Shown here one piece after another: positions 6,966 to 44,307 of a DNA stretch of 64,000 bases. Source of the DNA: Planctomycetota bacterium (GTDB taxonomy: Bacteria > Planctomycetota > MHYJ01 > WSZJ01). The DNA is taken from contig JBBTCT010000022.1 of the NCBI GenBank assembly GCA_038060895.1, positions 229,301 through 293,300 of the forward strand, given 5' to 3'. The position numbers and the translations under genes were made by a program. The notes beneath the pieces were generated by a model. That model was not told the origin of the DNA and did no database searches. It worked only from the letters and a program-made list of their open reading frames with translations. The stretch's first letter is position 1, and each line of letters opens with the position of its first letter.

Positions 6966-6987
6966 GCTCCCGCGCGACGGCGGCCCG

Positions 6988-8313: not shown

Positions 8314-8385
8314 CCGCCCCGTCCGTGGCTACAATGCCCGTGTCCTTTCGCCGTTCCGTGGAATCGCGGTCGCAGGGGGTGCGGC

Positions 8386-10608
8386 GTGGGCAGGGAGCTC
8401 GAGATTCTCGCTGGACTCATGGCAGTCCAGCTGCGCCTCGTGCCGGGCCCCCGATTCATCCACGCCGGCGCGCAGACCGAATCGGACCCGACGAAACTCC
8501 TCACCCGGCGACTGGTCGAGGAACGGGACATCGGCGAAGCCGAAATGGCGTCGATTCTCATGCTGGCGTCGGGGCAGGTCCGGCAGCACGGCGGGGACGA
8601 GACCGCCGCCCTGGCCTCGGCGCCGATCGACCCGAAGCTCCTCGACGCGCTTCTGGAGTGCGGGCCGTCTCCGAAAATGAAAGGGTTGCTGCGGCTGCTG
8701 CGTCCCGCGGAAAAAGTCGGCACTTCGGTGCTGCCGGGGCACGCACCGAAGCTGTCGCTCATCGACACTTCGGAGCTGGACGACGTTCTCGGCGGCGGCG
8801 AAGTCGACCTGGAACAGGAGCTCCGCGGCGCGCGGCCGATGGGCGGCGGCCTGGCCATCCCCGCTTCCATTCCGGCGCCGACCGCGGAATCGGCCGAGGC
8901 GGACGACGTCCGCAGGGTTGAGCGCGCGCTGAAAACGTACGCGGATTCGCTGGCGGCGGCGCAGGGGCAGAAAGGGTTCCATGCCAGGGGGATGACGCGC
9001 GGCGTCTCGGAGTCGAACGTGACGGCGCTCGGGTCCGACCAGTCCGCGACCCGGGAAGCCAGGCAGAAAGCGGCGACCTTGTTCGAGGGATTGCGCAAGA
9101 CGATCGAGGAAGCGGTCGCGCGCCGGCCCGCGAACCGCGCCATCCGGCACGCCGCGGCGGAGTTCTACACGCGCGCGGCGAGCCAGCGCGAAATCGAGGG
9201 AGAGGCGGCGGCTTCTTCCGAACTCAAGGCCCGCGCCCGGCTGCTCGACACCTCCGTTCACTCCGCGGTCCGGCGCTCCGGGACGCTGGGCGTGCGGACC
9301 CGGGCGTTTTCCTGCGCGTGCGTGCGCGAGGGACGCGAGTTCGCGCCCGGCGCGCTGGCACTTCGCGGCCTGAGCCTGTTCACCGGCCTCCCCGCAGTCA
9401 AATCGCCCTCGAAAGTTCCGGGAGATTCCGGCGAATCGGATCGCCCCGTCCGGCTGAAGGCCCACGGGCCCGAGTGCGTTCCGGCGCCCCTTCCCGGAGC
9501 CGACGTCTGGCTCTTCCGGTACGACCTCGGCACGGATCACTCCACGCTCACGACGCCGAAGGACGTGGCCGGGCGCGGGACCGATCCGCTGCCGGTTCAT
9601 CTGCGCGAAGCGCTTTTTGCGAAGAACTCCCCGCACGCGCCGGAAGGGCCCGGCGTCCACCTCGGGAAGACGCCGGTGGAGGGCCTCGTCCTCCCCTCCG
9701 GTTCGTGGATGCTGCTGGTCTGGCAAGCCGGCCGCAATCCGGCGCGGGTGCCCGTGCGCACGGGCGTCAGCGGCGACACTTCCATCGACGTGACGCTGTC
9801 GCTCCCCACGGAAGTTCCGCCGAAGTTCGCTTCGATCGCCGAAGGAACGTTCCTGTACCAGGGGGACGTGAAGAACCCGCACTCGGAGCCCGGCCAGTCC
9901 GGATCGACGCACGAGTTCCTGCTGGCGAAGTACCCGGTCACCGCGAGGGAGTACGCCGAATTTCTGAACGCCCGCTGCCAGGCGGAACTCGACCTCGTCG
10001 TGCGCCGGAGCGCGCCGCGGGACGTGGAAAAGGCGACCACTCTCTGGCCCGGGCCTCCGTTTGCCGTGCCGACGGCGCAGGCCCTCGAGGCCGCGCCCGC
10101 GGAGTTCCGCGCCGCCGCGAAGAAACTCCCCGGCTGCACCGCCGACTGGAATGAACGGTGGCCGATCGTCTCGATTTCGTGGCGCGACGCGATGATGTTC
10201 TGCGAATGGAAGCGCGCCACCACGGGATGGCTCATGACGCTTCCCCACGAAATCGACTGGGAGAAAGCCGCCAGGGGAGTGGACGGGCGGACGTTTCCGT
10301 GGGGGCACGGCCTGAAGCAGGGCAACTGCAATACCGTCAGCGCGCGTCCCGACTCGGCCAGCCCCTCGGCCGTGGAGGAGTTCCCGGCCGACGAGTCGCC
10401 CTACGGCGTCTTCGGGCTCGGCGGGAACGCGCGCGACATGTGCCTCAACCAGCCCGGGCCGGAATTCGCCGGGCAGCGCGTCATGCGCGGCGGCTACTGG
10501 GCGAGCGACGGCCTCCGCTGCCACTCCAGCTACCGCACCTGCGCCAGGCAGGACCACGTTTCCGCGAACGGAGGCTTCCGGCTGATGTGCATCACACGGC
10601 TCTCCTGA
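8386..10608 (+). CDS. FGE-sulfatase (SUMF1) domain protein with long N-terminal region
   Basis: The C-terminal domain contains 'LLAKYPVTAREYAEFLN', 'ISWRDAMMFCEWK', 'LPHEIDWEKAARG', 'ESPYGVFGLGGNARDMC', 'MRGGYW' and 'GFRLM'. Confidence 0.8.
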   Translation: MGRELEILAGLMAVQLRLVPGPRFIHAGAQTESDPTKLLTRRLVEERDIGEAEMASILMLASGQVRQHGGDETAALASAPIDPKLLDALLECGPSPKMKGLLRLLRPAEKVGTSVLPGHAPKLSLIDTSELDDVLGGGEVDLEQELRGARPMGGGLAIPASIPAPTAESAEADDVRRVERALKTYADSLAAAQGQKGFHARGMTRGVSESNVTALGSDQSATREARQKAATLFEGLRKTIEEAVARRPANRAIRHAAAEFYTRAASQREIEGEAAASSELKARARLLDTSVHSAVRRSGTLGVRTRAFSCACVREGREFAPGALALRGLSLFTGLPAVKSPSKVPGDSGESDRPVRLKAHGPECVPAPLPGADVWLFRYDLGTDHSTLTTPKDVAGRGTDPLPVHLREALFAKNSPHAPEGPGVHLGKTPVEGLVLPSGSWMLLVWQAGRNPARVPVRTGVSGDTSIDVTLSLPTEVPPKFASIAEGTFLYQGDVKNPHSEPGQSGSTHEFLLAKYPVTAREYAEFLNARCQAELDLVVRRSAPRDVEKATTLWPGPPFAVPTAQALEAAPAEFRAAAKKLPGCTADWNERWPIVSISWRDAMMFCEWKRATTGWLMTLPHEIDWEKAARGVDGRTFPWGHGLKQGNCNTVSARPDSASPSAVEEFPADESPYGVFGLGGNARDMCLNQPGPEFAGQRVMRGGYWASDGLRCHSSYRTCARQDHVSANGGFRLMCITRLS

Positions 10609-10660: not shown

Positions 10661-12556
10661 TTGCAGACATCCATCAGCGGGGAAGCCGGCGATCCGCGCC
10701 GGGCGCTGGATTCAGGGGAAGCGGCGGTGACAGAGCAAGAGAATCCGGGCCGGTGCCGGAACTTCGTGAACGCCTGCCGTGAACGGCGGTCGGTGAAGGT
10801 CCTCGCCGCGGGGGTGTTCCTCCTCGCGGCCGCGTGGGTCGTGCAGATCGCCTCACAGCCCGAGGGCCCGCGCTTCCGCGAAGGCCTCGCTCTCTACGCG
10901 ACTCGCTTCTGGCCGCTTCTGGGAAGCGCCGCCGTGCTCTTCGCCGTGTGGGTCGCGCTGTGGGCCGCGACGCACCGCGCGAAGCTCTCGGCGGTCCTGC
11001 TCCTCGTGCTGTGGCTGCCGCCTGCGATCGCCAACGCGGCGAAGCTGGCGAGCCTCGACCTCCCGCTGATGCCGCTGGACGCGTACCGCACGGGGGACAT
11101 GCTGTCGATTTTTCACGCGGACCTCGTGCGGCCGGGGGGGTGGCTGAAGCTGTCGCTCCTGGTCGCGCTCACGGCGCCGCTCGTCATGGCATTCGCGGTG
11201 ATGCCGTCGCCGAAGACGCGGCCGCGCGTCCGCATCGCCGCCGGCGTGGCGGCCCTCGCGTTCCTGGGCTCGCTCTTTCTCCCGGCGACGAACGTCTTCG
11301 CGCAGCTCTCGGGACCGTTCACGCGCTACAGCTGGGACAGCCGCGGCACCCACGACCAGAACGGATTCGTCGTGTTTTTCGCCATGAACTGCCGGTACGT
11401 GAGGGTCGAAGAGCCGCGCGGCTACTCGGAGGAAGCGGTCGCGCGCATCATCCGCGAGCTGCCGCCGTCCACTGCGAAGACGAGCGGCCTCCGCCCGAAC
11501 GTCATCGTCGTCCTGAGCGAGTCGTTCAGCGACGTGACGCGCATCCCGGGCGTCGAATTCGAAACCGACCCGCTCCCGACCCTCCACGAACTCCAGCGCG
11601 ACTTCGGCCGCCTCGACCTCGTCAGCCCCGTCTACGCCGGCATCACGTGCAACGCCGAGCTCGAGATCCTCACCGGATTCAACATGCGCTTCTTCCCCGA
11701 ACCCTCCGCCGCCTGGGTCGATTCGATCCGCCGCCCGGTGCCGTCTCTCGCTTCCATCCTCCGCGGCCACGGATATCGCGCGATCTCGCTTCACGCCGCC
11801 GGCGGGTTCCACAACGACGCGCAGGTGCAGCCGCTTCTCGGTTTCGAAAAGTGCATTCCCGGAAGCGACTGGGTCAACCGCGACGCGATCGGCTGGCTCG
11901 TGACGGACGAAGCGGTGACGAAGGAGGTCATCCGCGTTTCGCGCGAGCTGCCGCGGCCGTGGTTCGTGTGCGTGAACACCATCGAGGGGCACGCGCCCTA
12001 CGACGGCAAGTACCCGGACCCGAAGTGCGGGATTCGCTTTACGAGGCCGCTCTCGGAGAAGTCGCGTGAGATTCTCGAAGGGTACGCGTACGGACTGAAC
12101 CGAGCCGACCGCGCGCTGCGCGCGCTCATCGACGGGTACCGCGACTCGCCCGAGCCCACGCTCATCCTGTTCTACGGCGACCACCTTCCCGACCTCGGCG
12201 AGAACTTCCTCGCCTGGAGCGAAACCGGTTTCCTCCCGCCCGGACAGGGAAGCTCCTCCCTCGCCATGCGCACCGTCCCCGCCGCGATCTGGAACAACTA
12301 CGGGAAGCGGCTTCCCGTGCTCAACGGTCCCGTCGGCATGTCGCGAGTCCTGCCGCTTCTCCTCGACGCGCTCGAGTTGCCGAAGCCGGCGCACGTGCGC
12401 GTCGTCGAGCAGGTGGGCGCCCGCTGGCCGGTCGTGAGCACCGCGGGATGCTTTGACGCCAGCGGGACCGGCGCGGACGCGGATCTCGCCGATTACTCCC
12501 TCATGCAGTACGACCTGCTGTTCGGCAAGCAGCACTTCCTGCAGGGCGGGCGCTGA
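10661..12556 (+). CDS. LTA-synthase-family sulfatase-like membrane transferase
   Basis: Several N-terminal TM helices are followed by an alkaline-phosphatase-superfamily domain ('NVIVVLSESFSD', 'NTIEGHAPY', 'FYGDHLP'). The true start may lie further downstream. Confidence 0.8.
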   Translation: MQTSISGEAGDPRRALDSGEAAVTEQENPGRCRNFVNACRERRSVKVLAAGVFLLAAAWVVQIASQPEGPRFREGLALYATRFWPLLGSAAVLFAVWVALWAATHRAKLSAVLLLVLWLPPAIANAAKLASLDLPLMPLDAYRTGDMLSIFHADLVRPGGWLKLSLLVALTAPLVMAFAVMPSPKTRPRVRIAAGVAALAFLGSLFLPATNVFAQLSGPFTRYSWDSRGTHDQNGFVVFFAMNCRYVRVEEPRGYSEEAVARIIRELPPSTAKTSGLRPNVIVVLSESFSDVTRIPGVEFETDPLPTLHELQRDFGRLDLVSPVYAGITCNAELEILTGFNMRFFPEPSAAWVDSIRRPVPSLASILRGHGYRAISLHAAGGFHNDAQVQPLLGFEKCIPGSDWVNRDAIGWLVTDEAVTKEVIRVSRELPRPWFVCVNTIEGHAPYDGKYPDPKCGIRFTRPLSEKSREILEGYAYGLNRADRALRALIDGYRDSPEPTLILFYGDHLPDLGENFLAWSETGFLPPGQGSSSLAMRTVPAAIWNNYGKRLPVLNGPVGMSRVLPLLLDALELPKPAHVRVVEQVGARWPVVSTAGCFDASGTGADADLADYSLMQYDLLFGKQHFLQGGR

Positions 12557-22990: not shown

Positions 22991-23030
22991 GGCTGGCATG
23001 GGCCGGCATGAGCTGGCGTTGGCTTAGTTC
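22991..23030. repeat. tandem 10-mers GGCTGGCATG GGCCGGCATG AGCTGGCGTT GGCTTAGTTC
   Basis: Read directly. Same family and orientation as the left arm at 32372-32432. Confidence 0.7.
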
Positions 23031-23228
23031 AGCAGGAAGACCAAGACCCGTACAGAGGGTGGGCTGAAACGCCAGTGACTCGGGGCCGGCCAGGGGACTA
23101 TACTCTGGTCGGGGGAGATTTTTCCGAGTGGACCGCTGCTTTGCGCTGAGATCGCTGGTGCGGGAGGGAGAAGTAATGAGCGACCTGCTCTGCGTTGGAC
23201 TTTCGAAACGCTCCGCCCCCTCTCGTGT

Positions 23229-23252
23229 GCAAGCAAGCAAGCAAGCAAGCAA
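23229..23252. repeat. tetranucleotide microsatellite (GCAA)x6
   Basis: Read directly: gcaagcaagcaagcaagcaagcaa. It lies in the divergent intergenic region between the secretin-like operon and the EBP gene. Confidence 0.95.
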
Positions 23253-23364
23253 GGTAACCCACCTCTCAGCGCTGTTTGCGCGCCGCCGAAAGTCGAGATG
23301 CGGAAGACCGCATGGACGCCAGATGTCGCTGTGCCTCCCAGTCTGAAGGTTTCAATGCCAAGTT

Positions 23365-24924
23365 TTGCCTGGTGCCTACGAGAGGAAATCGCCCATGGAA
23401 CGATTTGAGGCCGCACGTCGCGCACGCGCAGTTCTGCAAAATCTGGTCATCGCGGCGGCTCCGGCTGGTCAAATCCTGAATGCCACGCTTCGCGAGTGCC
23501 TCCTCCTGACTGGGGCGCGAACCGCGCTCTTCATTGGCGCCGCCGAGGTCCCAGAGCACCTTCGAAGCGTTCCCATGACCTTCGATGGACCGGGAAAGTG
23601 GCCGCCGCTTTCACCGAAACTGCTCGAAACGGTCATGCGTACGGCGAAGCCCTGGGTTCCCGTGGCAACGCCCGCGGATGGAAATGGCACTCCACCCCAC
23701 GTCTCCGAAGTGCTGTGCCTGGGCGATCGTTTCATGGGGGTCGCAGGGTTCATGCCCTGCTCGTTGGAAACTCTCGGTGAAGCGGGGCGTGAACTGCTCA
23801 CAGAGCTCCTACAGTCCATCGCCGAAGCTCTCTCCGCGGCCGTGTACCAGACGGCAATCGCCCGATTGGAGTCGGACCTGCGGCTTGCGAGAGTTGGCAA
23901 TGCCCTCACGCCGCTACCTCTCGTCGGCGGACCGACGAAGCTGCAGTCAAAGCGGCTGGTCGGCAATTCATCCCAGATGCGCGATTTGGACGGACGGATC
24001 GATCGTGCAGCCGCCACCGATGCAACGGTCCTGATCCAGGGGGAAACAGGAACGGGGAAGGAACTTGTCGCCCAGGAAATTCACGCCCGTTCGCCGCGGC
24101 GGCGGGGCCCGTTCGTCGATCAGCACATGGGAGCCTTGCCCGACGACCTGATCGAAGCGGTCATCATGGGGTACGTCAAGGACATCCACTCGCAAGCCCA
24201 CAAAGACAAGCCCGGCCAGTTCGAGCTAGCCGACAAGGGCACCTACTTCATGGACGAGGTCGGGCTGACCACCCTGATCGTGCAGGAGAAATTTCTGCGT
24301 GTTCTCCAGGAGCGAAAGGTCCGCCGCATCGGGTCGGAAGTGTCGTTCGATTTCGACACGCGCATCATTGCGGCGAGCAATCGCGATCTGCAGGAACTCG
24401 TCCGTGAAGGAAAAATGCGTGAGGACTTTTTCTACCGGCTCAAGGTCGTGACCATTCCCATCCCCCCGCTGCGTCACCATCTCGAGGACTTGCCGGCACT
24501 GTTCGAGTATTTCACCGAGCGCCTCGCCTGCAAGTGGAGCCTGCCCGCGCTTCGCGACCACAAATTCGATTCCGCCTGGGCCGCTCTCCTCGGGGGATGG
24601 TCGTGGCCCGGAAACGTTCGGGAACTTGAAAACACCGTTGAGGAGGTCGTAACGAATTCGGGAGGCGCGCCAAAGCTCGAGGAACTGGAAAAGATCATGG
24701 ACGCGAAGCGGAATGCGGCCGGGATCGAGGAGGCAGCGTCCGGCGAGCGGATTTCGCACGCCAAGCGGATGGAGAATGCCGAAGCGAACTTCCTGCGAAG
24801 CGACCTGCGCGAGAGCAACGGCAGCGTCCGCAAGGCGGCAGAGAAGAACGGCCTCTCGGAGCCGACCATGCGAAGGAAGGCAACCCGGTATCACCTCTCG
24901 ACTTCGTCAGGCGCTCAGAAATGA
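23365..24924 (+). CDS. sigma-54-interaction-domain (AAA+) transcriptional regulator, GAF-like N-terminus, Fis-type HTH; GAFTGA motif absent
   Basis: 'VLIQGETGTGKELVAQEIH', 'GTYFMDEVG', 'RIIAASNRDLQELVREGKMREDFFYRLKVVTIPIPPLR', 'WPGNVRELEN' and the HTH 'SVRKAAEKNGLSEPTMRRKATRY'. An alternative start is ATG 23395. Confidence 0.85.
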   Translation: MPGAYERKSPMERFEAARRARAVLQNLVIAAAPAGQILNATLRECLLLTGARTALFIGAAEVPEHLRSVPMTFDGPGKWPPLSPKLLETVMRTAKPWVPVATPADGNGTPPHVSEVLCLGDRFMGVAGFMPCSLETLGEAGRELLTELLQSIAEALSAAVYQTAIARLESDLRLARVGNALTPLPLVGGPTKLQSKRLVGNSSQMRDLDGRIDRAAATDATVLIQGETGTGKELVAQEIHARSPRRRGPFVDQHMGALPDDLIEAVIMGYVKDIHSQAHKDKPGQFELADKGTYFMDEVGLTTLIVQEKFLRVLQERKVRRIGSEVSFDFDTRIIAASNRDLQELVREGKMREDFFYRLKVVTIPIPPLRHHLEDLPALFEYFTERLACKWSLPALRDHKFDSAWAALLGGWSWPGNVRELENTVEEVVTNSGGAPKLEELEKIMDAKRNAAGIEEAASGERISHAKRMENAEANFLRSDLRESNGSVRKAAEKNGLSEPTMRRKATRYHLSTSSGAQK

Positions 24925-25081
24925 CGAAGCGCCGCTCATCTTTGACGAAACGCACTTCGTAAGTCGAAGCCCTGTGGTGCGCGAAACTTGTGTCGCGTGC
25001 CGCACCGGCCGGTTCCGTTGAATTCGTCAAGAGTGAGCGAGTGCCGGATCCTTTTCCGGATCCCGCCCCGGGGAATGTGAG

Positions 25082-25096
25082 TGGCCCGCGGCTTGC
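25082..25096 (+). promoter_or_regulatory. sigma-54-type -24/-12 promoter candidate TGGCCCG-N4-TTGC
   Basis: TGGCCCGCGGCTTGCG matches the consensus TGGCACG-N4-TTGCW, with GG and GC at the canonical spacing. It ends 13 nt before ATG 25110. Confidence 0.5.
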
Positions 25097-25109
25097 GATA
25101 AAGATTCGC

Positions 25110-25637
25110 ATGGGAGCCTGCTGCGGCGGATGCGATGAGGGCGCGAGTTGCGCTGGCAAACAGCCTGCGGCGGTTTTGCTGCCTCCGGACCTGATCATCC
25201 CGGGACCCGACCCGGATCGCACGGGAGTGCTTGAGCTGGAAGAAGTTCCGGATGAGACGACGAGCGATGAATCGGTCCCGCTGATCACGAAGTCGCTCGG
25301 CCCCACCCGGCCAGTCGCACTTAACACCCGTCTCGTCCTCACGGACGGCGGAACGACTGTCAGCGAAGCGCTGCACGTCCGGGGTTGCAACTCGGGTAGC
25401 GTCGACCTTGTCGTCTTCCTTCTGAATTCGATCTCGACCATAGACGCGGTCCTGGAGGGCGGAATCGACGGAGAAAACTACCGCCGGATTTCCTCGACGC
25501 GATTCAGCGCAGCCGGGTTTGCGAGGTTCCGATTTCGCCGGGTGGGTTACCGCTTTCTCCGAGTGTATTACAGCGCTTCCGGCTCGGCCGGTGGCGTCGC
25601 TGTCCTGACCACAACGATCAACGGTTCATCCAACTGA
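25110..25637 (+). CDS. cassette protein A: Cys-rich N-terminus, Pro/acidic linker, beta-rich C-domain
   Basis: 'MGACCGGCDEGASCAGKQ...'. The C-domain 'AVLEGGIDGENYRRI...YRFLRVYY' is paralogous to protein B. The track ORF extends to GTG 24990; the start chosen here follows the promoter candidate. Confidence 0.6.
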   Translation: MGACCGGCDEGASCAGKQPAAVLLPPDLIIPGPDPDRTGVLELEEVPDETTSDESVPLITKSLGPTRPVALNTRLVLTDGGTTVSEALHVRGCNSGSVDLVVFLLNSISTIDAVLEGGIDGENYRRISSTRFSAAGFARFRFRRVGYRFLRVYYSASGSAGGVAVLTTTINGSSN

Positions 25638-25656
25638 CCCCCAAAGGAGGACGTTC

Positions 25657-25980
25657 ATGGCCTATGCCAAGCTCTTTACAAACTTGTCCGTCGTCAACGG
25701 AGTTTCGCAGTACTCGCAACCGTTCAGTATGGCGGGGAACAACGCGTTCCGGTTCGGAGTGACGGTCTTCAGCAACTCCGCGACGAGTCTGACCTGTACG
25801 CCCCAAGGTTCCATCGACGGACAAAACTGGCGGGACCTCACCGCCGCAACCGGGCTCGTCGTCGGGTGGGCCTCGTTCACGCAAGGGAGCATCACCGACC
25901 TGATGGTGAGACTCGTCTGCACGGTCGTAGGAACCGGGACGATCGTCCTGGCCGCTGATGTGTACACGAGCCAGCAGTAG
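25657..25980 (+). CDS. cassette protein B: 107-aa beta-rich protein (possible major subunit)
   Basis: Strong SD (AAAGGAGG, 6 nt before the ATG). 'TPQGSIDGQNWRDLTAA...LMVRLVC' parallels protein A. A stable hairpin follows the gene. Confidence 0.7.
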   Translation: MAYAKLFTNLSVVNGVSQYSQPFSMAGNNAFRFGVTVFSNSATSLTCTPQGSIDGQNWRDLTAATGLVVGWASFTQGSITDLMVRLVCTVVGTGTIVLAADVYTSQQ

Positions 25981-26026
25981 GAACACGAAGAGTCGGAGCA
26001 GTCGCAACCCTCGGACCAGTCGGGGC

Positions 26027-26055
26027 GGAGGAGAGCCGTCGTCCGGCTCTCTTCC
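26027..26055 (+). other. intercistronic GC-rich hairpin (12-bp stem, 5-nt loop, no U-tract)
   Basis: GGAGGAGAGCCG tcgtc CGGCTCTCTTCC, read directly. It lies between cassette genes B and C. Confidence 0.6.
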
Positions 26056-26100
26056 GTCCGGCTTCCGAAATAAAAACATCGTCGTTACAAAGAGGTCGAA

Positions 26101-26667
26101 ATGCCCGAACTTCCGCTGACCTACGTCTACGAGCCGCCGAACTGGCTTGCGCGCGCGAACGCCTACGGCTCCTGCGTCGGCGGCCGGAGATTCTCCGTCG
26201 CGCATCAGACACCCGGGACGACCGTGACGGGGCAGACCTCCTTCGTGGCCACGACTCCCACGTTCCTGATCAACCAGGCGAGCGCCGCGCACCGCGTCGT
26301 GCTCTCGAACTTCGCGCTCTGCCAGATCGGGACGCCCGCGGGAGGGACGATCCACGTGGCGCTGGCGATCGACTCGTCGGATCGATACTCCTCAGGAGGG
26401 ACGTCGATCACCCCGCAGGCGACCGCGATGCCCAGTGCGCTCACCGCGGGCTTCAGTTTCCGGTTCAACCCGACCGCCGCCGCCGCCAGCGCCGTCCGGA
26501 TCCTGAACGAGTGGACCCAGCCCGCGTGGGCCGGTTCGATTTTCAATCCCGACCTGCATGACGGCGTCCTGATCGGATACACGGGTTCGATTCTGATCTA
26601 TACGTGGGCGGCCACGACGGCGCCGACGTGGATCATCGGCGGCTTCGACGTCCTGGAGGACGAGTAG
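26101..26667 (+). CDS. cassette protein C: 188-aa beta-rich protein
   Basis: SD 'AAGAGG' precedes the start. Ser/Thr/Ala/Gly-rich with alternating hydrophobic pattern ('VVLSNFALCQIG', 'ILIYTWAATTAPTWIIGGFDV'). The stop lies 1 nt before the gene D start. Confidence 0.7.
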   Translation: MPELPLTYVYEPPNWLARANAYGSCVGGRRFSVAHQTPGTTVTGQTSFVATTPTFLINQASAAHRVVLSNFALCQIGTPAGGTIHVALAIDSSDRYSSGGTSITPQATAMPSALTAGFSFRFNPTAAAASAVRILNEWTQPAWAGSIFNPDLHDGVLIGYTGSILIYTWAATTAPTWIIGGFDVLEDE

Positions 26668-26668
26668 G

Positions 26669-27553
26669 ATGCCGACGATCCGAGACCTGAGCCAGGGCGG
26701 CGTCCAGCCTCACGCCTCGACGCACATGTCGGGAGGTTCCGACGCGATCAAGCTCGACGAGCTCGCCGCGCCTACGGACGTCACGACGCTGAATGTCTCC
26801 ACTTCGGCTCACGGGCTGACGCCGAAGCTCCCGAACGATGCGACCAAATACCTCGACGGGACTGGCGCGTTCAGCGTCCCTGCGGGAAGCGGCGGCTCCG
26901 GCTCGTACCTCGGGACCACCGTGAAGACTTCCGGCACGACGTTCACGACCGGAGCCTCCACCAACACGATCCGTGTACGCCTTCAGGCCGGCGGCGGTGG
27001 AGGCGGCGGCGCTGCGTCGAATCTATTCAGCCCCGCCGGCGGCGGTGGCGCGGGCGGATACGCGGAAAAGACATTCGCCGTGAGCCCCTCGACCGCCTAC
27101 ACCTGCGCGATCGGCGCCGCAGGAGCCGGGGGCTCGGCAGGAAACAACAACGGCTCGGCCGGAGGGAACTCCACTTTCGCAGTCGGCGGAACGACCGTCA
27201 CAGCTTTCGGCGGCAATGGCGGAATCGGAACTGCCGGCGGAAGCGGCTCATCCGCGATCTTCGTTCTGGGGGGCGCTGCCGCATCCGTCTCCACGAGCGC
27301 CGACCTGAACGCAAGCGGCTCGCCGGGAGGGTTCGGGACAGGAAGTGGCGGCATTGGTGGTAGCGGCGCCTCGGGAGCCGGAGGTTCGTGCCTCTTCGGC
27401 GCCGGCGGAAACAGCCTCAATACCCAGAGCGGCGGCGCCGCGGGCGTCGGTTACGGCGCGGGCGGAAGCGGCGGCTGTTCGCTTTCCAGCGGCGGAAACG
27501 TTGCCGGCGGCGCAGGACTCGCCGGGGTGATCGTCGTCGAGGAGTTCTCGTAG
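26669..27553 (+). CDS. cassette protein D: phage-tail-fibre-like N-terminus + glycine-rich domain
   Basis: 'HASTHMSGGSDAIKLDELA...STSAHGLTPKLPNDATKYLDGTGAFS' is followed by a 'GGGGGGGAAS...GGGGAGGYAEK...GGNGGIG' glycine-rich domain. Confidence 0.8.
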   Translation: MPTIRDLSQGGVQPHASTHMSGGSDAIKLDELAAPTDVTTLNVSTSAHGLTPKLPNDATKYLDGTGAFSVPAGSGGSGSYLGTTVKTSGTTFTTGASTNTIRVRLQAGGGGGGGAASNLFSPAGGGGAGGYAEKTFAVSPSTAYTCAIGAAGAGGSAGNNNGSAGGNSTFAVGGTTVTAFGGNGGIGTAGGSGSSAIFVLGGAAASVSTSADLNASGSPGGFGTGSGGIGGSGASGAGGSCLFGAGGNSLNTQSGGAAGVGYGAGGSGGCSLSSGGNVAGGAGLAGVIVVEEFS

Positions 27554-27574
27554 CAAGATCGAGGAGATGAAGTC

Positions 27575-28015
27575 GTGAGCGGAAACGGCTGTTCCTTCTG
27601 GGCCCAGAACGTCTCCCCGGAGACGAGCTGGCCGATTTCCTCCGAAGCGCCGGCGGGGATGGACGGAATGTCCTGGTCGAGCGAGTGCGTCTGGGACGCG
27701 ATGTCCTTCCCGCAGGGAGTCCTGCAGGTCTCCGCGCCCGTCGAGATCCGGAACCCAAACAACACCGTGATCTTCTCCATCGTGATCATCGGCCAGAGCA
27801 GCGGGTCTCCTCAGCTCGCCATCGTATTCTCCGGCGCCAATTGTCCGGAGGGTCCCTACACCACGCTGAGCGGGCCGACCAACATCACGACCTTGGGCCT
27901 GCAGTTCCTAGGCGCCGTGACCGGAATCAGGTTCCCCTACGTCCGGGCAGAAGTCATGTCGTCGAACGGGAGTGCGGTGGCGGGGAGCGGGTGCTTTTGT
28001 GTCTCGGAAGCCTAA
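27575..28015 (+). CDS. cassette protein E: 146-aa beta-rich, Cys-containing protein
   Basis: GTG start with SD 'GAGGAG' 9 nt upstream. 'VIFSIVIIGQSSGSPQLAIVFSG...IRFPYVRAEV' is the same style as A and B. Confidence 0.65.
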   Translation: MSGNGCSFWAQNVSPETSWPISSEAPAGMDGMSWSSECVWDAMSFPQGVLQVSAPVEIRNPNNTVIFSIVIIGQSSGSPQLAIVFSGANCPEGPYTTLSGPTNITTLGLQFLGAVTGIRFPYVRAEVMSSNGSAVAGSGCFCVSEA

Positions 28016-28173
28016 AGCCAGCGTTCGCTCGACAAACCAACCGTCCAAAGCGCCATCGGTGTAGCACATAACGAGAAGAGGTTTCGCGCGACTGTCTCTC
28101 ATCAAAGTCAAGTCAGAGCTCTCCAGCGCCTGACGGGTCTTCGAGTCGATTTTCCCTAGAGAAGGAGGTACCG

Positions 28174-28656
28174 ATGCCAGATCCAGAGATTGTGTCAATT
28201 GACGAAATCTTGCGTGCTAATGAGCTAAGGGATCCGCTGACCGGGGTCAGAACCGGCGGCACCGTGCTACACCCTGGCACTGGCGTGAAACTTCGGAAAG
28301 ATCGGCCTTCAGGATCCATTGGAATCAACTTGGACACAGGTCAATTGGAGATGCATGACTGGGGGCCGACCGTTGCTGGGCCCAGTACTGATTTCTCAAA
28401 GTTACCTGAACGAATCCGACTCTTTGGGGGAGAAACTGGCGACGGGCCCAGGGTGGGTCGTGACCCAAAGGAGTCTGAGGACCGTGGCGTGGAGATGCTG
28501 CTTCCGGAAGGCGTGAGAAAATTCGTCGCAGGAGATGCGCTGAAGGCAGGTATTGTCTCCATTTCCTTCGAGTTCGGAGGACCTTGGGGCCTTACCGTCA
28601 CGTTTGGAAGGCCGCCTGAGCCGGCTGGGGTCAGACGGAAGGACCTGGAGAAGTGA
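28174..28656 (+). CDS. hypothetical protein (low-GC island)
   Basis: Strong SD (GAAGGAGG, 5 nt before the ATG). 160 aa. No motif recognised. Confidence 0.6.
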   Translation: MPDPEIVSIDEILRANELRDPLTGVRTGGTVLHPGTGVKLRKDRPSGSIGINLDTGQLEMHDWGPTVAGPSTDFSKLPERIRLFGGETGDGPRVGRDPKESEDRGVEMLLPEGVRKFVAGDALKAGIVSISFEFGGPWGLTVTFGRPPEPAGVRRKDLEK

Positions 28657-28760
28657 CGCAATGCGAAACACGATCCATTTCTCGAAGTCGAGGACTGTCT
28701 GGGATGGGATGACTTCCCAGGAGCTAACCGCGCCTCCGTCGAAATCTCAGGAGCACGTCA

Positions 28761-29909
28761 ATGCGAACAGAAGCTTCTAGCGAACTGACTCATTCGTCAA
28801 GGTGGTGTCATCCAGTTACATTTGCACTTGCCTTGTTTCTTGGATGCGCCGCGGGTCAGGGCACCAACGAATCGAAGCCAGAAGAACCCAGGATTCACAA
28901 TTCGGTGGAATTGAGGGACTCGCAAGGGAGGATCCGGCTCTCGATCTGTCTGGATCAAGATGAGTGTCCTCAAATCATGCTATTTGATCCCGCCGGACAC
29001 CCTCGCTCGCGAATTGGACTAAGTTCGGAATTCGAACCCGTAATTCGTATGACGGGTTCGAACGGCGAGGATGCGGTTTCGCTTGGTTTGCGCGAGGATT
29101 CCCCCCAACTCCGGCTGGAGTGTGGCGAGGGACGAAGTGGTATTCGGATCCAGGCTGAAGCAACGCGAGGACCGGAGTTGACGTTGTCGGATGGCGATGG
29201 TTTGGAGCGCGCCCGACTGGCAATTGATCGTGGCGCCCCACAACTTTCGATGTTGGACCCTGGACTCAAGCCTCGCCTGTACCTTGGAACCGAGGTCTCG
29301 ACACCGGATAATTACGGACTCCGCGTCACCTCAGACGACGGCCTTTCCCGCGCGGAGGTTGGCACGACAAAAAACTCGCCGGCGTTCATCCTCGTTTCTG
29401 GAGGCGCTGGCGAATGGTCAGCGCTTGCAATGAGCCGTGGCGGGCACCCGCTGCTAAGCTTTGTCGATTCGACCGACATCGAACGAATTCGAGTCAGCTT
29501 GACGCCTCAACAGGAGTCCGAAGTAGCGCTTTGTAGCGCCGAAGGTCAGATTTCCGTTCTGGCAAGATGTCCGAAGTCGGGTTTCGGGTTGGTCAACTTG
29601 TCCGATGGCGATTCACCGACAGCCGTGTTTCTGGGGAAAGGTTCGTCCGGTGATGTCTTGGCCGGGATCGTTGATGCGGCGGGGTGTAGACGAGCGAGCT
29701 TGTCGCTAACCCCGGAGGACCGAGCTTACGCCTCCGTACAGGATTCGACCGCCTCCTCAGCCTTTCTGACGAACGATGGCAAAGGACTTTGCAAACTCGA
29801 GCTGAATCGAAAGGGAAAGACCAGACTGCTCGCGGGTTTTGACAAGACTGATACAGCATCCTTCATGTCGCTTGATTCGGAGGAAATCGAAACTTGGCGA
29901 TCAAAGTAG
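28761..29909 (+). CDS. lipoprotein built from ~20-aa 'L.L.D..G..R..L' type repeats (low-GC island)
   Basis: Lipobox 'LALFLGCAAG'. Recurring units include 'VELRDSQGRIRLSI', 'IMLFDPAGHPRSRIGL', 'LTLSDGDGLERARLAI' and 'LRVTSDDGLSRAEVG'. Confidence 0.7.
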   Translation: MRTEASSELTHSSRWCHPVTFALALFLGCAAGQGTNESKPEEPRIHNSVELRDSQGRIRLSICLDQDECPQIMLFDPAGHPRSRIGLSSEFEPVIRMTGSNGEDAVSLGLREDSPQLRLECGEGRSGIRIQAEATRGPELTLSDGDGLERARLAIDRGAPQLSMLDPGLKPRLYLGTEVSTPDNYGLRVTSDDGLSRAEVGTTKNSPAFILVSGGAGEWSALAMSRGGHPLLSFVDSTDIERIRVSLTPQQESEVALCSAEGQISVLARCPKSGFGLVNLSDGDSPTAVFLGKGSSGDVLAGIVDAAGCRRASLSLTPEDRAYASVQDSTASSAFLTNDGKGLCKLELNRKGKTRLLAGFDKTDTASFMSLDSEEIETWRSK

Positions 29910-30203
29910 ACTGCGGGGCTGCCATTCTTCTACAGACAGGCTTCAGTAGATGCGGTCGGGCGTCTCGATGGGGTTGAGACGTCGGGTGTAGACGGTTTCG
30001 CGACGTTGTAGACGTCGTAGGGCGACTCTTCCGTTCGGACGGAGCCCAACACCTGGGCTTGCGGGACACCCCGAACCTCCGAACGCAAATCGCTTCGTCC
30101 ACATCCAATTTCCCCAGGAGTCTCATGCCCGCCTTGCTCCGCCTCCCCCGCCAATGCTAAAGTCGCCCTTCCGGGTAACCCAGGGCCCGGTTGAGGGCCT
30201 CTC

Positions 30204-30725
30204 ATGGACGCAACGAAACCGGAAGTCGCCGCTCCAGCACCGCCCGCGCCGCTGGCCGACCCGCGCGTGGACAAGCTCCTTGAAAAGATCGGGATCCTTG
30301 AGCAGCTTTTCGTGAAGCGCATCAAGGACGACCAGGCGCACGCGGCGGCGTACAACACGCTGTACCAGGACATGTCGAAGTACCGGGACGACGCGTTCCG
30401 GGGGGCGCAGAAGTCGCTTCTCAAGGGTCTAGTGCTCATTTACGACACGATGAAGCGGTCCATTTCGGGGATCGGGGACGGGACGGTGCGCGAGATGGTG
30501 AACCTGCACGTCGAGGAACTGCTCGAGCTGCTTCATCGCCACGACGTCGAGCGGATGCCGGACACGCTGGGAAAATTCGACCGGAACGTGCAGCAGGCGC
30601 TGGGGACGGAGCCGGCGGCGACGGCGGAAGAAGATCAGACTGTTGCGCGAGTGGTGCGTGACGGGTTCAAATGGGGGACTCAGGTGTTGAGGCCGCAGGA
30701 AGTAGTGATTAAGGTAAAAAAGTAG
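30204..30725 (+). CDS. GrpE-like nucleotide-exchange factor
   Basis: The C-terminal 'LGKFDRNVQQALGTEPA...DQTVARVVRDGFKWGTQVLRPQEVVIKV' matches the GrpE pattern G.FDP..H.A....V..V...GY....vlRpA.V.V. Confidence 0.7.
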   Translation: MDATKPEVAAPAPPAPLADPRVDKLLEKIGILEQLFVKRIKDDQAHAAAYNTLYQDMSKYRDDAFRGAQKSLLKGLVLIYDTMKRSISGIGDGTVREMVNLHVEELLELLHRHDVERMPDTLGKFDRNVQQALGTEPAATAEEDQTVARVVRDGFKWGTQVLRPQEVVIKVKK

Positions 30726-30757
30726 TAGGGAGCAGGGGGTAGTGGGTAGTTGGTAGG
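30721..30757. repeat. GGTAG-type oligomer repeat (contains GGTAGTGGGTAG)
   Basis: agtagtagggagcagggggtagtgggtagttggtagg, read directly. The 12-mer recurs reverse-complemented at 34670-34681, and an 8-mer recurs at 32549-32556. Confidence 0.7.
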
Positions 30758-30788
30758 AAAGGCAAAGACTCTTAACAGGAGACCGTCC

Positions 30789-32378
30789 ATGGCCGACCAG
30801 AAGACGCCGATGACGTGCGGGATTGACCTGGGCACGACGAACAGCGCCATCGCGTTCATCGACGAGCACGGCAAGGCGCAGGTGATCCAGAACACGGACA
30901 ACGAGCGGATCACGCCCTCGGTCGTGCTGTTCGAGGAGAAGGAAGTCATCGTCGGCAAGATCGCCAAGAACTCGGCGGTGGCAGCGCCGGACCGGGTAGT
31001 GCAGTTCGTGAAGCGGCACATCGGCGAAGAGGGCTGGGTGAAGACGTACTTCGGGACGGAGTACACGCCCGAGACGATCAGCGCGCTGATCCTGAAGCGC
31101 ATCGTGCAGGACGCCGAGAAGGTGAGCGGCGGCAAAGTTGGGAGCGTGGTGATCACGGTTCCGGCGTACTTCAACGAAGTCGAGCGCAAGGCGACGCAGG
31201 ACGCGGGGACGATCGCGGGCCTGAACGTCGTCTCCATCCTCAATGAGCCGACGGCCGCGGCGCTGGCTTACGGGCTGGACCGGCTGGGCGAGAAGAAGCG
31301 CGTCCTGGTCTACGACCTGGGCGGCGGGACGTTCGACGTGACGATCATCGAGATCGACGGCACGAAGATCGACGTGCTGGCGACGGACGGCGAGCGGCGG
31401 CTGGGCGGCATCGACTGGGACGACGAGATCATCAACATGGTCTCCGAGAAGTTCCAGGCGGAGCACGGGATCGACCCGCGCAACGACCTCGAAGCGTGCC
31501 AGGACCTGCGCAACAAGGCGGAAGACGCGAAGATCAGCCTGTCGAAGCTCGAAAAGGTGCGCATCCTCTGCCAGTGCCAGGGCAAGACGACCAAGGTCGA
31601 ACTGACGCGCGAAGATTTCGAGAAGATCACCAAGGGCCTGCTCGACCAGACCGAGACGTACCTCGGGGTCGTGCTCCAGAAGGCGAAGCTCGCCTGGAAG
31701 GACATCGGCACCGTCCTGCTCGTCGGCGGCATGACCCGCATGCCCGCCGTGCAGGGCATGATCCAGCGTGTCACGGGTCTTAAACCCGAAACCGGCATCA
31801 ACCCCGACGAATGCGTCGCGATGGGCGCCGCCTACTACAACGCCGTCCTCGCCCTCCAGGCCAAGCCGTCCGAGGAGCCCGAGCTGGCGCTTCAGGGCGA
31901 AGCGCTGAAGGAGTCGATCGACGAGGAAGTCATGATCCTGCTGCAGGGCGTCGAGGTCACGAACGTGAACTCGCACTCGCTGGGCATCGTGGGCATCCAC
32001 AAGAAGACCGGCAAGCTGGTCGCGTACAAGATGATCCCGAAGAACACGCCGATCCCGGCCGACATCACAAAGCCGTTCGGGACGGAGAAGGAAAACCAGG
32101 TCAGCGTGCAGATCAAGATCGTCGAGGGCGAAGGCGAGACCCCCGAGGATTGCACGGAGATCGGGATGTGCGAGATCAAGGACCTCCCGAAGGGCCACCC
32201 CGCGGGCTCGATCATCGACGTGACCTACTCGTACAGCGTCGACGGCCGACTGCAAGTCACAGGCAAGGACCGCCTGTCCGGCAAGGAGGCCAGGGTCGAG
32301 ATCGTCCGCGCGAGCGGTATGGATGACAAAGAGATCAAGGAGGCGAAGAAGGACGTGGTTGAGATGGAAGTAGGCTAA
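30789..32378 (+). CDS. Hsp70-family ATPase, short form (no long helical lid)
   Basis: 'GIDLGTTNSAIAF', 'VITVPAYFN', 'LVYDLGGGTFDVTIIE' and 'VLLVGGMTRMPAVQ'. The start at ATG 30789 has SD AGGAG 8 nt upstream. About 529 aa. Confidence 0.9.
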   Translation: MADQKTPMTCGIDLGTTNSAIAFIDEHGKAQVIQNTDNERITPSVVLFEEKEVIVGKIAKNSAVAAPDRVVQFVKRHIGEEGWVKTYFGTEYTPETISALILKRIVQDAEKVSGGKVGSVVITVPAYFNEVERKATQDAGTIAGLNVVSILNEPTAAALAYGLDRLGEKKRVLVYDLGGGTFDVTIIEIDGTKIDVLATDGERRLGGIDWDDEIINMVSEKFQAEHGIDPRNDLEACQDLRNKAEDAKISLSKLEKVRILCQCQGKTTKVELTREDFEKITKGLLDQTETYLGVVLQKAKLAWKDIGTVLLVGGMTRMPAVQGMIQRVTGLKPETGINPDECVAMGAAYYNAVLALQAKPSEEPELALQGEALKESIDEEVMILLQGVEVTNVNSHSLGIVGIHKKTGKLVAYKMIPKNTPIPADITKPFGTEKENQVSVQIKIVEGEGETPEDCTEIGMCEIKDLPKGHPAGSIIDVTYSYSVDGRLQVTGKDRLSGKEARVEIVRASGMDDKEIKEAKKDVVEMEVG

Positions 32379-32550
32379 GGACAGGCTGGCATAGGCTGGC
32401 GGAGGCTGCGGAGGCTGGCGGAGGCTTTGGCGCAAAGGGAGGCAACCCCCTATGAGTAAGCGCCGACGCAATCGCCAGCCCCGATTCAGCCGACGCCTTT
32501 AGCCTTCGCCAGCCTCCGCCAGCCTCTGCCAGCCTCCGCCAGCCTCTTCA
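32372..32550. repeat. large inverted repeat made of tandem 10-mers (left arm ~5x AGGCTGGCGG, right arm 5x AGCCTCCGCC), ~64-nt spacer
   Basis: Read directly. The right arm is in perfect 10-nt register at 32501-32550. The arms are reverse complements of each other. Confidence 0.9.
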
Positions 32551-32556
32551 CTACCC

Positions 32557-33771
32557 ATGCCTGAAAACCGCTTCCACGAACTTCTGGGCCTCCCAGAAGA
32601 GGTCTCCGACCCGGACTATTACCAGCTCCTGGGCGTGCCACGCTCCGAGAATGACGCCGCCGCAATCGAGGCGTGCTTCAAGGAGAAGATGACGCATGTC
32701 CAGCACATCGAGAACCCGCGCCACAAGGAGTTTCTCGAGTTTCTCAAGGGGGAGCTGAAGCGCGCCCGGTCGATCCTGACCGACGAAGAGCGGCGCGGCG
32801 AGTACGACCGCGAGCTGGCGGAGGAGCGCGGCGACGAGCTTCGGAAGGTGCTGTCGCACATGCTCGTGGACGGGACGCTGAGCTCGATCGCCGAGGTGTC
32901 GGTCTTCCGCGAGGGTCACAATCTCGGGCTGAGCGGCGAGTTCGTGAAGCAGGTCGTGGACGAGGAGTTGAAGAAGGCGGGGGCGCGCCGCGTCTCGGTC
33001 GCGACGGGGACCAACGGGCACCAGACGCAGGTCCTCATGAACCAGAAGGCGCAGGAAGTCGCGCGCCAGATGCAGGAAGCCCGCATGGCGGCGCGCATCG
33101 CCGACACGCGCGCGAAGATCGCGGAGACGCACCAGAAGAAGGCCGAGGAGCAGGTGCAGGTCGTGCTGCAGAAGGCCCGCGTGGCCGAGGTCCAGAAGAA
33201 GCAGGCCGTCGAACTGGCGCAGGAAACCCGCGAACGCGCGCGGCAGGCCGAGATCCACAAGATGCGCGCCGAACAGAAGGTCCAGGCCGTCACGCAGAAG
33301 GCCCGCGAAGCCGAGACGCTCGCGCGCAAGGCGATTACCCGTGAGCACCTCGCCGCCGCCCGCCACAAGATGTCCGAACAGGAACGCAAGCAGCTCGAAG
33401 CCGGCATGAAGGAGGCGGAGACCCGCTTCCAGGCCTACGTCGAAGCCTCCAACGAAGAACTTGAGTCGGTCCGTGAGAAAGGCATGGCAGGGCGGCGCCT
33501 CACGATGTGCTACGCCCTCCTCAGCATGTCGCTCGTCGCCGGCGCCGCGCTGCCTAAATACGTGCCGGGCGCCGCTTCCGCCATCACGAAACTGCTCGAA
33601 CCCTATGTCTCCAGGGTCAGCGGCATTCCGCACGCGGCCCTGCCGCTCATCGCCATCGCAATCCTGCTCCCGACGCTTCATTGGCTGGCAGGGACGCGGG
33701 CCACCGGGTTCTTCGCGCCGCTGCTGGTTATCCTCGCGCTGGCCGTCGCGGCGGGCGTGCTGCGGGGATAG
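32557..33771 (+). CDS. J-like-domain protein without HPD, long coiled coil, C-terminal TM helices
   Basis: 'DYYQLLGVPRSENDAAAIEACFKEKMTHVQHIENPRH...ILTDEERRGEYDREL' is a J-domain scaffold with HIE in place of HPD. A Gln/Lys/Ala/Glu coiled coil follows. C-terminal TM segments are 'LIAIAILLPTL' and 'FFAPLLVILALAVAAGVL'. Confidence 0.8.
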   Translation: MPENRFHELLGLPEEVSDPDYYQLLGVPRSENDAAAIEACFKEKMTHVQHIENPRHKEFLEFLKGELKRARSILTDEERRGEYDRELAEERGDELRKVLSHMLVDGTLSSIAEVSVFREGHNLGLSGEFVKQVVDEELKKAGARRVSVATGTNGHQTQVLMNQKAQEVARQMQEARMAARIADTRAKIAETHQKKAEEQVQVVLQKARVAEVQKKQAVELAQETRERARQAEIHKMRAEQKVQAVTQKAREAETLARKAITREHLAAARHKMSEQERKQLEAGMKEAETRFQAYVEASNEELESVREKGMAGRRLTMCYALLSMSLVAGAALPKYVPGAASAITKLLEPYVSRVSGIPHAALPLIAIAILLPTLHWLAGTRATGFFAPLLVILALAVAAGVLRG

Positions 33772-44203: not shown

Positions 44204-44215
44204 TGTACGTCGGTT

Positions 44216-44307
44216 GGAGAGGTGTCCGAGTGGCTTATGGTGCTGGTTTCCAAAACCAGTGAACGGTGGTGACACACCGTCCGAGGGTTCGACTCCCTCC
44301 CTCTCCG
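44216..44307 (+). tRNA. type II tRNA, Ser-like body (G73, long variable arm), anticodon CCA
   Basis: Manual cloverleaf. Acceptor GGAGAGG/CCTCTCC. D-arm TCC-GAGTGGCTTAT-GGT. Anticodon stem CTGGT/ACCAG with loop TTCCAAA. 23-nt variable arm (ACGGTG-GTGACA-CACCGT). T-arm GAGGG-TTCGACT-CCCTC. Discriminator G. No encoded CCA end. Confidence 0.8.

Follow-up and report, generated by a model that had tools for sequence, protein, structure and literature searches.

A probable sigma-54 promoter beside a regulator with a His-Ser loop, ahead of a five-gene cassette in a Planctomycetota bacterium

Is the sigma-54-type -24/-12 element ahead of a five-gene cassette in a Planctomycetota bacterium a real promoter, and which protein would open it? 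The question was raised by a 64,000-nt stretch of DNA (hereafter the window), i.e., contig JBBTCT010000022.1, positions 229,301 to 293,300 of the forward strand, from the metagenome-assembled genome (MAG) GCA_038060895.1. In the window, the element TGGCCCGCGGCTTGCG lies between a gene of the enhancer-binding protein (EBP) family and five open reading frames (ORFs), ORF1 to ORF5. Judged by the comparison of related loci, this element very probably works as a genuine sigma-54 promoter and drives the cassette. The region 24903-25110 is likely the control region of a sigma-54-dependent and activator-dependent operon. The promoter claim is well supported because of comparative evidence, not because of the quality of the motif. 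The features of the control region are as follows.

24903-24962, no strand assigned: distal cluster of predicted upstream activating sequences (UAS), about -205 to -146 from the predicted transcription start, overlapping the EBP stop codon.
24903-24909 and 24956-24962: flanking half-sites of the distal cluster, TTCGTCA and imperfect TTCGTAA.
24912-24928 and 24933-24949, plus strand: tandem copies of CGCTCA-N4-TGACGAA, about -196 to -159, from direct and inverted repeat families.
25023-25039, minus strand: proximal UAS copy TTCGTCAAGAGTGAGCG, the reverse complement of CGCTCA-N4-TGACGAA, at -85 to -69.
25044-25063, plus strand: the pair CCGGATCC-TTTT-CCGGATCC, also readable as GGATCC-N6-GGATCC, at -64 to -45; not conserved.
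25082-25097, plus strand: sigma-54-type -24/-12 promoter element TGGCCCG-CGGC-TTGCG, i.e., TGGCCCGCGGCTTGCG; 10/12 consensus positions, with conserved columns.
25108, plus strand: predicted transcription start, placed by geometry from the -12 C at 25096, with a 2-nt leader.

An earlier note on this DNA had reported the octamer pair, TGGCCCGCGGCTTGCG, the GG/GC spacing, and the ATG at 25110, and all of them were found at the positions that it had listed.

Comparison loci were gathered by homologues of ORF1, except for L021, which was found via the regulator. An EBP-family gene or its C-terminal fragment was placed ahead of the cassette in the window, L001, L002, L005, L008, L017, and L020, and Pfam confirmed the fragments. 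In L003, L004, L012, and L013, an extracytoplasmic function (ECF) sigma factor was found ahead instead, and its gene overlapped ORF1. A GG-N10-GC element was present in the corresponding gap of ten other EBP-type cassette loci, i.e., L001, L002, L005, L008, L010 (with the near-identical contigs L009 and L011), L017, L018, L020, and L021. The contigs of L010 and L018 begin near the promoter. The ECF-type loci L012, L003, and L016 served as negative controls and showed no -24/-12 element (p = 0.2-0.6). Conservation in orthologous loci, on which the earlier note had let its promoter depend, was thus seen in the EBP-type loci and not in the ECF-type loci. The elements of eight loci are as follows.

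L001: -24/-12 element TTGGCCCGGCGCTTGCGA.
L017: -24/-12 element ATGGCCCGCTTCTTGCGA.
L005: -24/-12 element CTGGCACGCGCTTCGCTA.
L008: -24/-12 element GCGGCACGCTCTTCGCAA.
L010: -24/-12 element CAGGCACGACCCTTGCTT.
L018: -24/-12 element CCGGCACACTCTTCGCTA.
L020: -24/-12 element CGGGCACACTCTTCGCTA.
L002: -24/-12 element CGGGCATGGACTTCGCGT, weaker.

The best scores were compared with those of random segments of the same length, and the per-locus p values were 0.0002-0.066. The combined p by the Fisher method was 5e-8 for the first seven loci with a position weight matrix (PWM), and 1.4e-7 over nine loci with a consensus-only statistic (5e-5 when the null pool still contained true sites), but the loci are evolutionarily related, so these values overstate independence. 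The consensus-only test was added because the PWM, with weights after the Barrios compilation, is approximate.

The nine sites, i.e., the window and eight others, were anchored on the -12 C. In this alignment, the only conserved columns were GGC-C (-25 to -21), T (-14), and GC (-13/-12). It was used in place of a MAFFT alignment of eight promoter regions, which misregistered the window and L001. In a motif-blind test of word conservation, the 16-mer at 25082 ranked first with a summed score of 73 against 71 for GC-rich words, which is not decisive alone. The anchored alignment and the pairwise footprint between the window and L021 are the decisive evidence of conservation. Because the conservation is confined to the recognition positions in otherwise diverged DNA, selection on a sigma-54 site is argued.

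The pairwise footprint came from L021, whose regulator P0138 shows 56 % identity to the window regulator over 314 ungapped aa. The recognition helices are nearly the same, i.e., NGLTEPTMRRK in P0138 and NGLSEPTMRRK in the window. In L021, 245 nt separate the regulator gene from the same cassette, whose products have 153, 110, 189, 424, and 116 aa. The gap held the predicted -24/-12 element, GTGGCCCGGCGCTTGCTT (GTGGCCCG-N4-TTGC), with a score of 13.6 bits, and this was the top PWM match on either strand of the 17-kb L021 (p = 0.005). Upstream of the element, three ATGACGAA repeats and an inverted TTCGTCA were found, i.e., the TGACGAA sites were present as predicted. Alignment of the two control regions showed conservation of CAGAAATGACGAAG (14/14), the second TGACGAA, TTCGTCA, GAGTGGCCCG, and GCTTGC, and little else. 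The TTCGTCA of the proximal UAS was conserved at the corresponding place in L021.

Repeated activator sites at -65 to -220 are the usual UAS layout. By an unbiased repeat scan of 24880-25125, three copies of the 17-nt bipartite element CGCTCA-N4-TGACGAA were recognized. Of the 19 copies of TGACGAA in the window, four fall in a span of 127 bp in the control region. At -65 to -220, every compared locus carries a repeated word of its own. In L001 it is CGCTCGA(A), present four times, a perfect 18-bp palindrome, GCGCTCGAATTCGAGCGC, included. L017 has GTGCGGAAC three times, spaced 44 nt, and L005 has CGTAACA five times, making two palindromes. By their conservation in L021 and their typical UAS distance, the TGACGAA-containing repeats are predicted to be the likely activator sites.

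The start of ORF1 was set by comparison. The ATG at 25110 lies 13 nt past the end of the element. It is taken as the true start because the full-length ORF1 homologues begin at the same Met and share a conserved N-terminus, M-x-C-C-x-x-C-[DE]-x-G-x-x-C, and the NCBI annotation, which calls an identical 175-aa product under the locus tag AAB074_15660, agrees. By the canonical -24/-12 geometry, transcription would start 12 nt past the -12 C. The ATG would then be at +3 in the window, +4 in L001, and +6 in L010. The leaders of L005, L008, L020, and L021 are about 37-120 nt, and a Shine-Dalgarno sequence was seen in L005, L020, and L021 (the L021 leader being about 41 nt). Most other loci have one or two small ORFs between the promoter and ORF1; there, the TGAcATG junction at the start of ORF1 suggests translational coupling. 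The sequence GATAAAGATTCGC ahead of the window ATG holds no Shine-Dalgarno sequence. The near-leaderless ORF1 of the earlier note thus keeps its ATG and its predicted leader of about 2 nt, but the layout is lineage-specific, with longer leaders in L005, L008, L020, and L021. It looks like a local derivative rather than a conserved feature.

The protein most likely to be asked for activation is the product of the gene just upstream, and its sequence is unusual at one point. The gene and its loop codons are as follows.

23365-24924, plus strand: EBP-family regulator gene; the longest ORF has 519 aa, with an AAA+ sigma-54-interaction domain and a probable C-terminal helix-turn-helix (HTH).
24181-24198, plus strand: codons of the L1 loop, D273-I-H-S-Q-A278, at the GAFTGA position.

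NCBI annotates a 449-aa product that starts near 23575. The regulator matched Sigma54_activat (PF00158) in Pfam at 6.7e-54, as well as AAA_lid_14, and its best PDB matches were NtrC, NifA, ZraR, and FleQ. By inspection of alignments, the ATPase motifs, i.e., Walker A, Walker B, and the sensor and arginine residues, seem intact, and GETGTGKE, FMDE, ASNRDL, REDFFYRL, and GNVRELEN were visible. The C-terminus showed a weak HTH_50 match (E = 0.005) and aligned with the HTH of ZraR; its NGLSEPTMRRK helix is the one conserved in P0138. Searching with the whole regulator returned mostly generic NtrC-family proteins, and the only close match was the protein itself. A search with the N-terminal domain of the window EBP or that of L005 gave no relatives. 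The best family-library match of the regulator was PADLOC RtcR_PspF2--CARF_AAA_HTH (8.5e-84), slightly better than any NCBIfam model, and no NCBIfam cut-off was reached.

In ungapped HMMER alignments, DIHSQA stands opposite the GAFTGA of NtrC, NifA, and ZraR. The other cassette-linked regulators showed GSHSKA (L005) and GAFSGA (L002) at this place. Among about 119 generic EBP matches with a readable loop, none has His at loop position 3. When only the 56 residues around the L1 loop were used as the query, an exhaustive phmmer search over 1.8 billion representatives recovered the following proteins.

P0138 (L021 regulator): L1 loop GMHSTA.
P0161: L1 loop DAHSTA.
P0226: L1 loop GSHSQA.
P0247: L1 loop GAHSTA.
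P0274: L1 loop GAHSTA.
P0248: L1 loop GSHSSA.
P0187: L1 loop DAHNKA, i.e., His without Ser.

The His-containing loops fall in separate clusters at 50 % identity, and His-Ser occurs in at least eight EBP clusters with the window included. This conservation suggests selection on the loop. As the sequences indicate, the [GD]-x-H-S-x-A variant is recurrent and conserved, not a product of random decay. P0161 has an apparent N-terminal receiver domain, as read from its sequence. A fourth His-Ser case next to a candidate promoter is L023, a locus from an unrelated genome of 38 % GC, whose EBP of the P0248 cluster has the GSHSSA loop. Its divergent gap holds a -24/-12-like sequence, TTGGCATAAATATGGCAA, of 12.2 bits, the third best in 13 kb, about 25 nt before the neighbouring operon. 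This pairing is suggestive (p about 0.05). The GSHSSA EBP of L023 is surrounded by HATPase_c_3 and TIR-domain genes and a Y1 transposase (3840-9502), apparently a defence-island setting. In the gap at 11568-11881 of the same locus, three tandem units of about 48 nt, GTCCCGTCAGGGACC...GGTAATTTATTCAG, are visible by eye.

The Phe and Thr of GAFTGA contact region I of sigma-54 (PMC3467059). Natural functional variants of the motif are GAYTGA (TouR), GSFTGA (LevR), GAFSGA (BkdR), and GAFTDA (FlgR), and the change of T4 to Ser is tolerated (PMC3162934). The strings of the His-Ser loops were not mentioned in the open-access literature or in the available parts of the PMC3162934 supplements, which argues, weakly, for a variant not yet described. 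The [G/D]-x-H-S-x-A EBPs may be a natural class of working sigma-54 activators, new to the literature, in which His-Ser stands in for the Phe-Thr pair regarded as indispensable for engaging sigma-54 region I; the odds of this are close to balanced and slightly adverse. The members of this putative class are the regulators of the window, L005, and L021 (P0138), and P0161, P0226, P0247, P0274, and P0248. Three of them, i.e., those of the window, L005, and L021, adjoin conserved -24/-12 elements before the same cassette.

If the promoter is activated by this regulator, the control region would work in a simple order. RNA polymerase with sigma-54 would bind TGGCCCG-N4-TTGCG (25082-25097) as a closed complex. 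The product of 23365-24924 would bind the three CGCTCA-N4-TGACGAA copies at about -196 to -159 and -85 to -69. It would then oligomerise and contact the polymerase by DNA looping, and ATP hydrolysis would open the promoter. Transcription would proceed from near 25108 through ORF1-ORF5 (25110-28015). The start codon of ORF1 would be at about +3, so that its translation would begin on an mRNA with almost no leader.

Several points weigh against this reading, besides the relatedness of the loci and the approximate PWM given above. The window element is a moderate match in a GC-rich background, and its quality alone does not establish a promoter. The GG (25083-84) and GC (25095-96) have the correct GG-N10-GC spacing, and 10 of the 12 specified positions of TGGCACG-N4-TTGCW are matched, the exceptions being -22 (C instead of A) and -11 (G instead of W). 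Because the whole window is GC-rich (65.8 %), the G/C matches hold little information. The PWM score is 8.8 of 24.5 bits, which ranks 21 among the 33 window matches of at least 8 bits. When up to two mismatches are allowed, TGGCACG-N4-TTGCW has six matches in the window against 7.8 expected, i.e., no enrichment. In the gap scan, no plus-strand terminator was found; the EBP gene and the cassette are not separated, and read-through could contribute. It is also unusual for a leader to have only 2 nt and lack a Shine-Dalgarno sequence, and L021, the closest regulatory orthologue, does not share this layout. The rpoN gene was not found among the genes of the 64-kb window. The regulator lacks GAFTGA, and in a survey of 4,970 EBPs, F3 was replaced only by Tyr in validated activators, whereas other replacements were classed as inactive (PMC3162934). 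EBP homologues without GAFTGA, such as TyrR, DhaR, and HupR, are sigma-70-dependent (PMC3162934). Since the change of F to H counts as inactive by this account, the regulator cannot be filed as a canonical bacterial EBP. A sigma-54 system is on record in the phylum, as Rhodopirellula baltica appears in the sigma-54/EBP context tables (PMC3162934). In the element's favour, just three sites in 128 kb have GG and GC intact with at least 10/12 matches, and for the 188-nt gap this means p = 0.004. The PWM gave p = 0.028 for the window gap. The earlier note had called the element near-consensus, which was right for the GG/GC and the spacing but overstated for a 10/12 and 8.8-bit match. Its estimate of a chance below 1 % agrees with the consensus statistic and not with the PWM.

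In one rival explanation, the motif is a chance GC-rich match without promoter function, and transcription of the cassette comes as read-through of the EBP gene or starts at a planctomycetal promoter of sigma-70 or ECF type that escaped recognition. The lack of enrichment, the low PWM score, and the missing terminator speak for it, and planctomycetal sigma-70 promoters are poorly defined, so that a scan could miss one. No sigma-70-like promoter was found in the gap or at 24800-25300, although the consensus was of the E. coli type and a planctomycetal promoter could escape it. An ECF-type promoter in the window gap was rejected, as it showed no GGAAC-N-CGT-type match and none of the blocks shared by L012 and L003. 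Against a chance match stand the restriction of conservation to the sigma-54 recognition columns in nine aligned sites, the combined p of 1e-7 to 5e-5, the absence of the element from ECF-type loci, and the success of the prediction in L021. Chance is accordingly a very improbable source of the motif. It is less far-fetched, though still unlikely, that the -24/-12 promoter is real and the regulator with the His-Ser loop is not its activator. A canonical EBP encoded elsewhere would then open the promoter, and the regulator would act at the TGACGAA sites as a sigma-70-type activator or repressor, like TyrR, DhaR, HupR, or VpsR. The DIHSQA loop in place of GAFTGA, the inactivity of F3 changes other than Tyr with the sigma-70 dependence of motif-less homologues (PMC3162934), and the absence of position-3 His from the generic EBP matches favour such a division of labour. 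Yet the His-Ser regulators of the window, L005, and L021 stand directly before good elements (10/12, 11/12, and 13.6 bits), and they take the same position as the GAFSGA-loop EBP in L002. Their His-Ser is conserved over the clusters and is not randomly degenerate, their ATPase motifs look intact, the gap shows no promoter of the E. coli sigma-70 type, and the His-Ser EBP of L023 also has its -24/-12-like element.

The earlier note had also proposed the two CCGGATCC copies as palindromic binding sites of an activator or an architectural protein. The copies at 25044-25051 and 25056-25063 are 12 nt apart from start to start. They are not palindromic as claimed, since CCGGATCC reads GGATCCGG on the opposite strand. 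The palindrome is limited to the inner GGATCC, and the pair forms a 6-bp inverted repeat. Bending proteins bind between the UAS and the promoter in many sigma-54 promoters, and the pair, at -64 to -45, occupies such a place. Type-B loci hold a different conserved palindrome, GTTTTCC-N3-GGAGAAC, at about the same place. These points favour the proposal. Yet the pair was absent from all other cassette loci compared, even from L021 with its almost identical recognition helix. Moreover, CCGGATCC occurs 14 times in the window, and a repeat of such an 8-mer at this distance is not statistically unusual. Activator binding is better explained by the TGACGAA repeats, and the role given to the octamers is improbable. 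As a terminator, the CCGGATCC hairpin was rejected; its stem is 5-6 bp without a T-run, it folds no better than shuffled sequence (z = -0.07), and the terminator scan of the plus strand was empty. The pair may be a lineage-specific site for another protein or have no function, and a sigma-54 promoter activated from the TGACGAA sites needs no such pair.

The GTTTTCC-N3-GGAGAAC palindrome, an imperfect one at about -72 to -50, is found in the subgroup of loci with the type-B 'GGCAC...CTTCGC' element. The sites are L005 1937-1959, L002 5031-5053, and L018 about 13-35, with weaker ones in L020 and L008. Nineteen nt of it are exact between L005 and L002 despite EBPs of only about 30-35 % identity. 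The loci of this subgroup also share a leader block, CCCGTCTACGCCGCG.

The genes that the promoter would drive are five tightly spaced ORFs of the same strand at 25110-28015, with gaps of 1-120 nt and no convincing terminator found. They likely form one operon, and are listed below.

ORF1, 25110-25637, plus strand: 175 aa; disordered Cys-rich N-terminus (M-G-A-C-C-G-G-C...C) and C-terminal beta-sandwich.
ORF2, 25657-25980, plus strand: 107 aa; weak match to a major tail protein.
ORF3, 26101-26667, plus strand: 188 aa.
ORF4, 26669-27553, plus strand: 294 aa; glycine-rich, tail-fibre-like.
ORF5, 27575-28015, plus strand: 146 aa.

Sixteen homologues of ORF1 were found, all in Planctomycetota MAGs or metagenome contigs. 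The gene order was kept in L008, L009, L012, and L021. In the loci gathered by ORF1, the products have about 174, 106, 187, 380 (glycine-rich), and 146 aa. ORF4 matched Gly_rich_2 and phrog_863, i.e., tail fiber assembly, at 3.4e-29, and the other cassette proteins showed no Pfam, NCBIfam, or PADLOC family match. ORF2 and ORF5 are paralog-like genes. The AlphaFold model of ORF1 has a mean predicted local distance difference test score (pLDDT) of 76, and about 90 over the C-terminal 115 residues. Its fold matches are generic jelly-rolls. The disordered CC-x-x-C...C segment followed by a jelly-roll resembles the Ena endospore-appendage subunits with their N-terminal Cys connector. Foldseek listed Ena (7a02, 9i0y) for ORF1 at E of about 9e-4, among many generic jelly-rolls. 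In L005 (3126-3140), and at the same place in L006, the ORF1 homologue starts with ATG GGC TGA GGA. The in-frame TGA stands at the conserved Cys of the M-G-C-C motif in these two contigs from different samples, and could be a selenocysteine codon, a mark of a pseudogene, or an assembly error. The hairpin downstream of the L005 TGA was not significant (z = -1.0).

The ECF-controlled cassettes of L003, L004, L012, and L013 have the same gene order and homologous ORF1-ORF5, but the sigma-factor gene overlaps ORF1, no -24/-12 element is present, and the upstream blocks are different. These blocks, GATTTTTTTTC...CTCCTTG...(CCA)4-5CCGCAA, are shared before the sigma-factor gene at L012 7260-7340 and L003 915-990, and are presumably a control region of their own. 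They are absent from the window. As the genes ahead of it suggest, the cassette has evidently swapped regulators in evolution, i.e., an EBP with sigma-54 in some loci and an ECF sigma factor in others.

Around the cassette, 23000-30000 has a GC content of 55-67 % against 68-73 % in the genes just upstream, and this lower GC of the regulator and cassette region suggests horizontal acquisition. At 23-30 kb, neither flanking direct repeats nor a tRNA turned up, and 24500-25700 held no Rfam family at E up to 1. No family was matched by the genes at 28174-28656 and 28761-29909, and a trio of GrpE, Hsp70, and DnaJ-like genes (30204-33771) follows the cassette. Elsewhere, the window encodes two Ser/Thr kinases that carry fused TPR or FGE-sulfatase domains. 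It also has an ECF sigma factor (56022-56762) and a GGDEF gene adjoining a HAMP-SpoIIE phosphatase gene; the trio and these genes were recorded under 30204-33771 and 59468-62493. The top -24/-12 PWM match of the window, TCGGCACGTGCGTTGCAA at 45623-45640 (14.2 bits), is in AT-rich DNA, flanked by the start of an IS1595 transposase gene (44542-45516, minus strand) on one side and by an ORF without a Pfam match (45662-46261) on the other. It adjoins the transposase, and no link was made to the cassette system. tRNA-Trp (44215-44308) and tRNA-Pro (44325-44421) are 92-97 nt long and match the Rfam tRNA model end to end, and their length implies insertions of about 20 nt.

The arrangement resembles the NtrC-glnAp2, PspF-pspA, and ZraR-zraP modules. 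These share GG-N10-GC with TGGC/TTGC flanks, activator repeats about 70-200 bp upstream, and, beside its target, an activator gene with an AAA+ domain and a C-terminal HTH, a probable one in the window. The window differs from them by the DIHSQA loop, the predicted 2-nt leader, the functionally unassigned targets, and its origin in a planctomycete MAG. With TyrR, DhaR, HupR, and VpsR (PMC3162934), the regulator shares a complete AAA+ core and a non-canonical L1 loop. However, those proteins have deletions or unrelated substitutions and no -24/-12 pairing, whereas the window-type variant is a conserved [GD]-x-H-S-x-A beside conserved -24/-12 elements in three cassette loci. The functional GAFTGA variants show that single conservative changes are tolerated, and the change of T4 to Ser is common to the window loop, but His at position 3 is found in none of the validated activators listed (PMC3162934).

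A sigma-54 promoter beside an EBP gene is routine in itself. In this case it offers a way to approach, through its regulation, a planctomycetal cassette that is conserved and encodes small beta-sandwich proteins together with a glycine-rich, tail-fibre-like protein. The window regulator has His-Ser where every validated activator has Phe or Tyr and then Thr or Ser. If the His-Ser EBPs do not activate sigma-54, these promoters would need another activator, and the proteins would be a new kind of EBP-derived regulator. If they do, the annotation rule that separates activators from sigma-70-dependent look-alikes would need revision, and the family would be a natural experiment on how loop L1 engages sigma-54.

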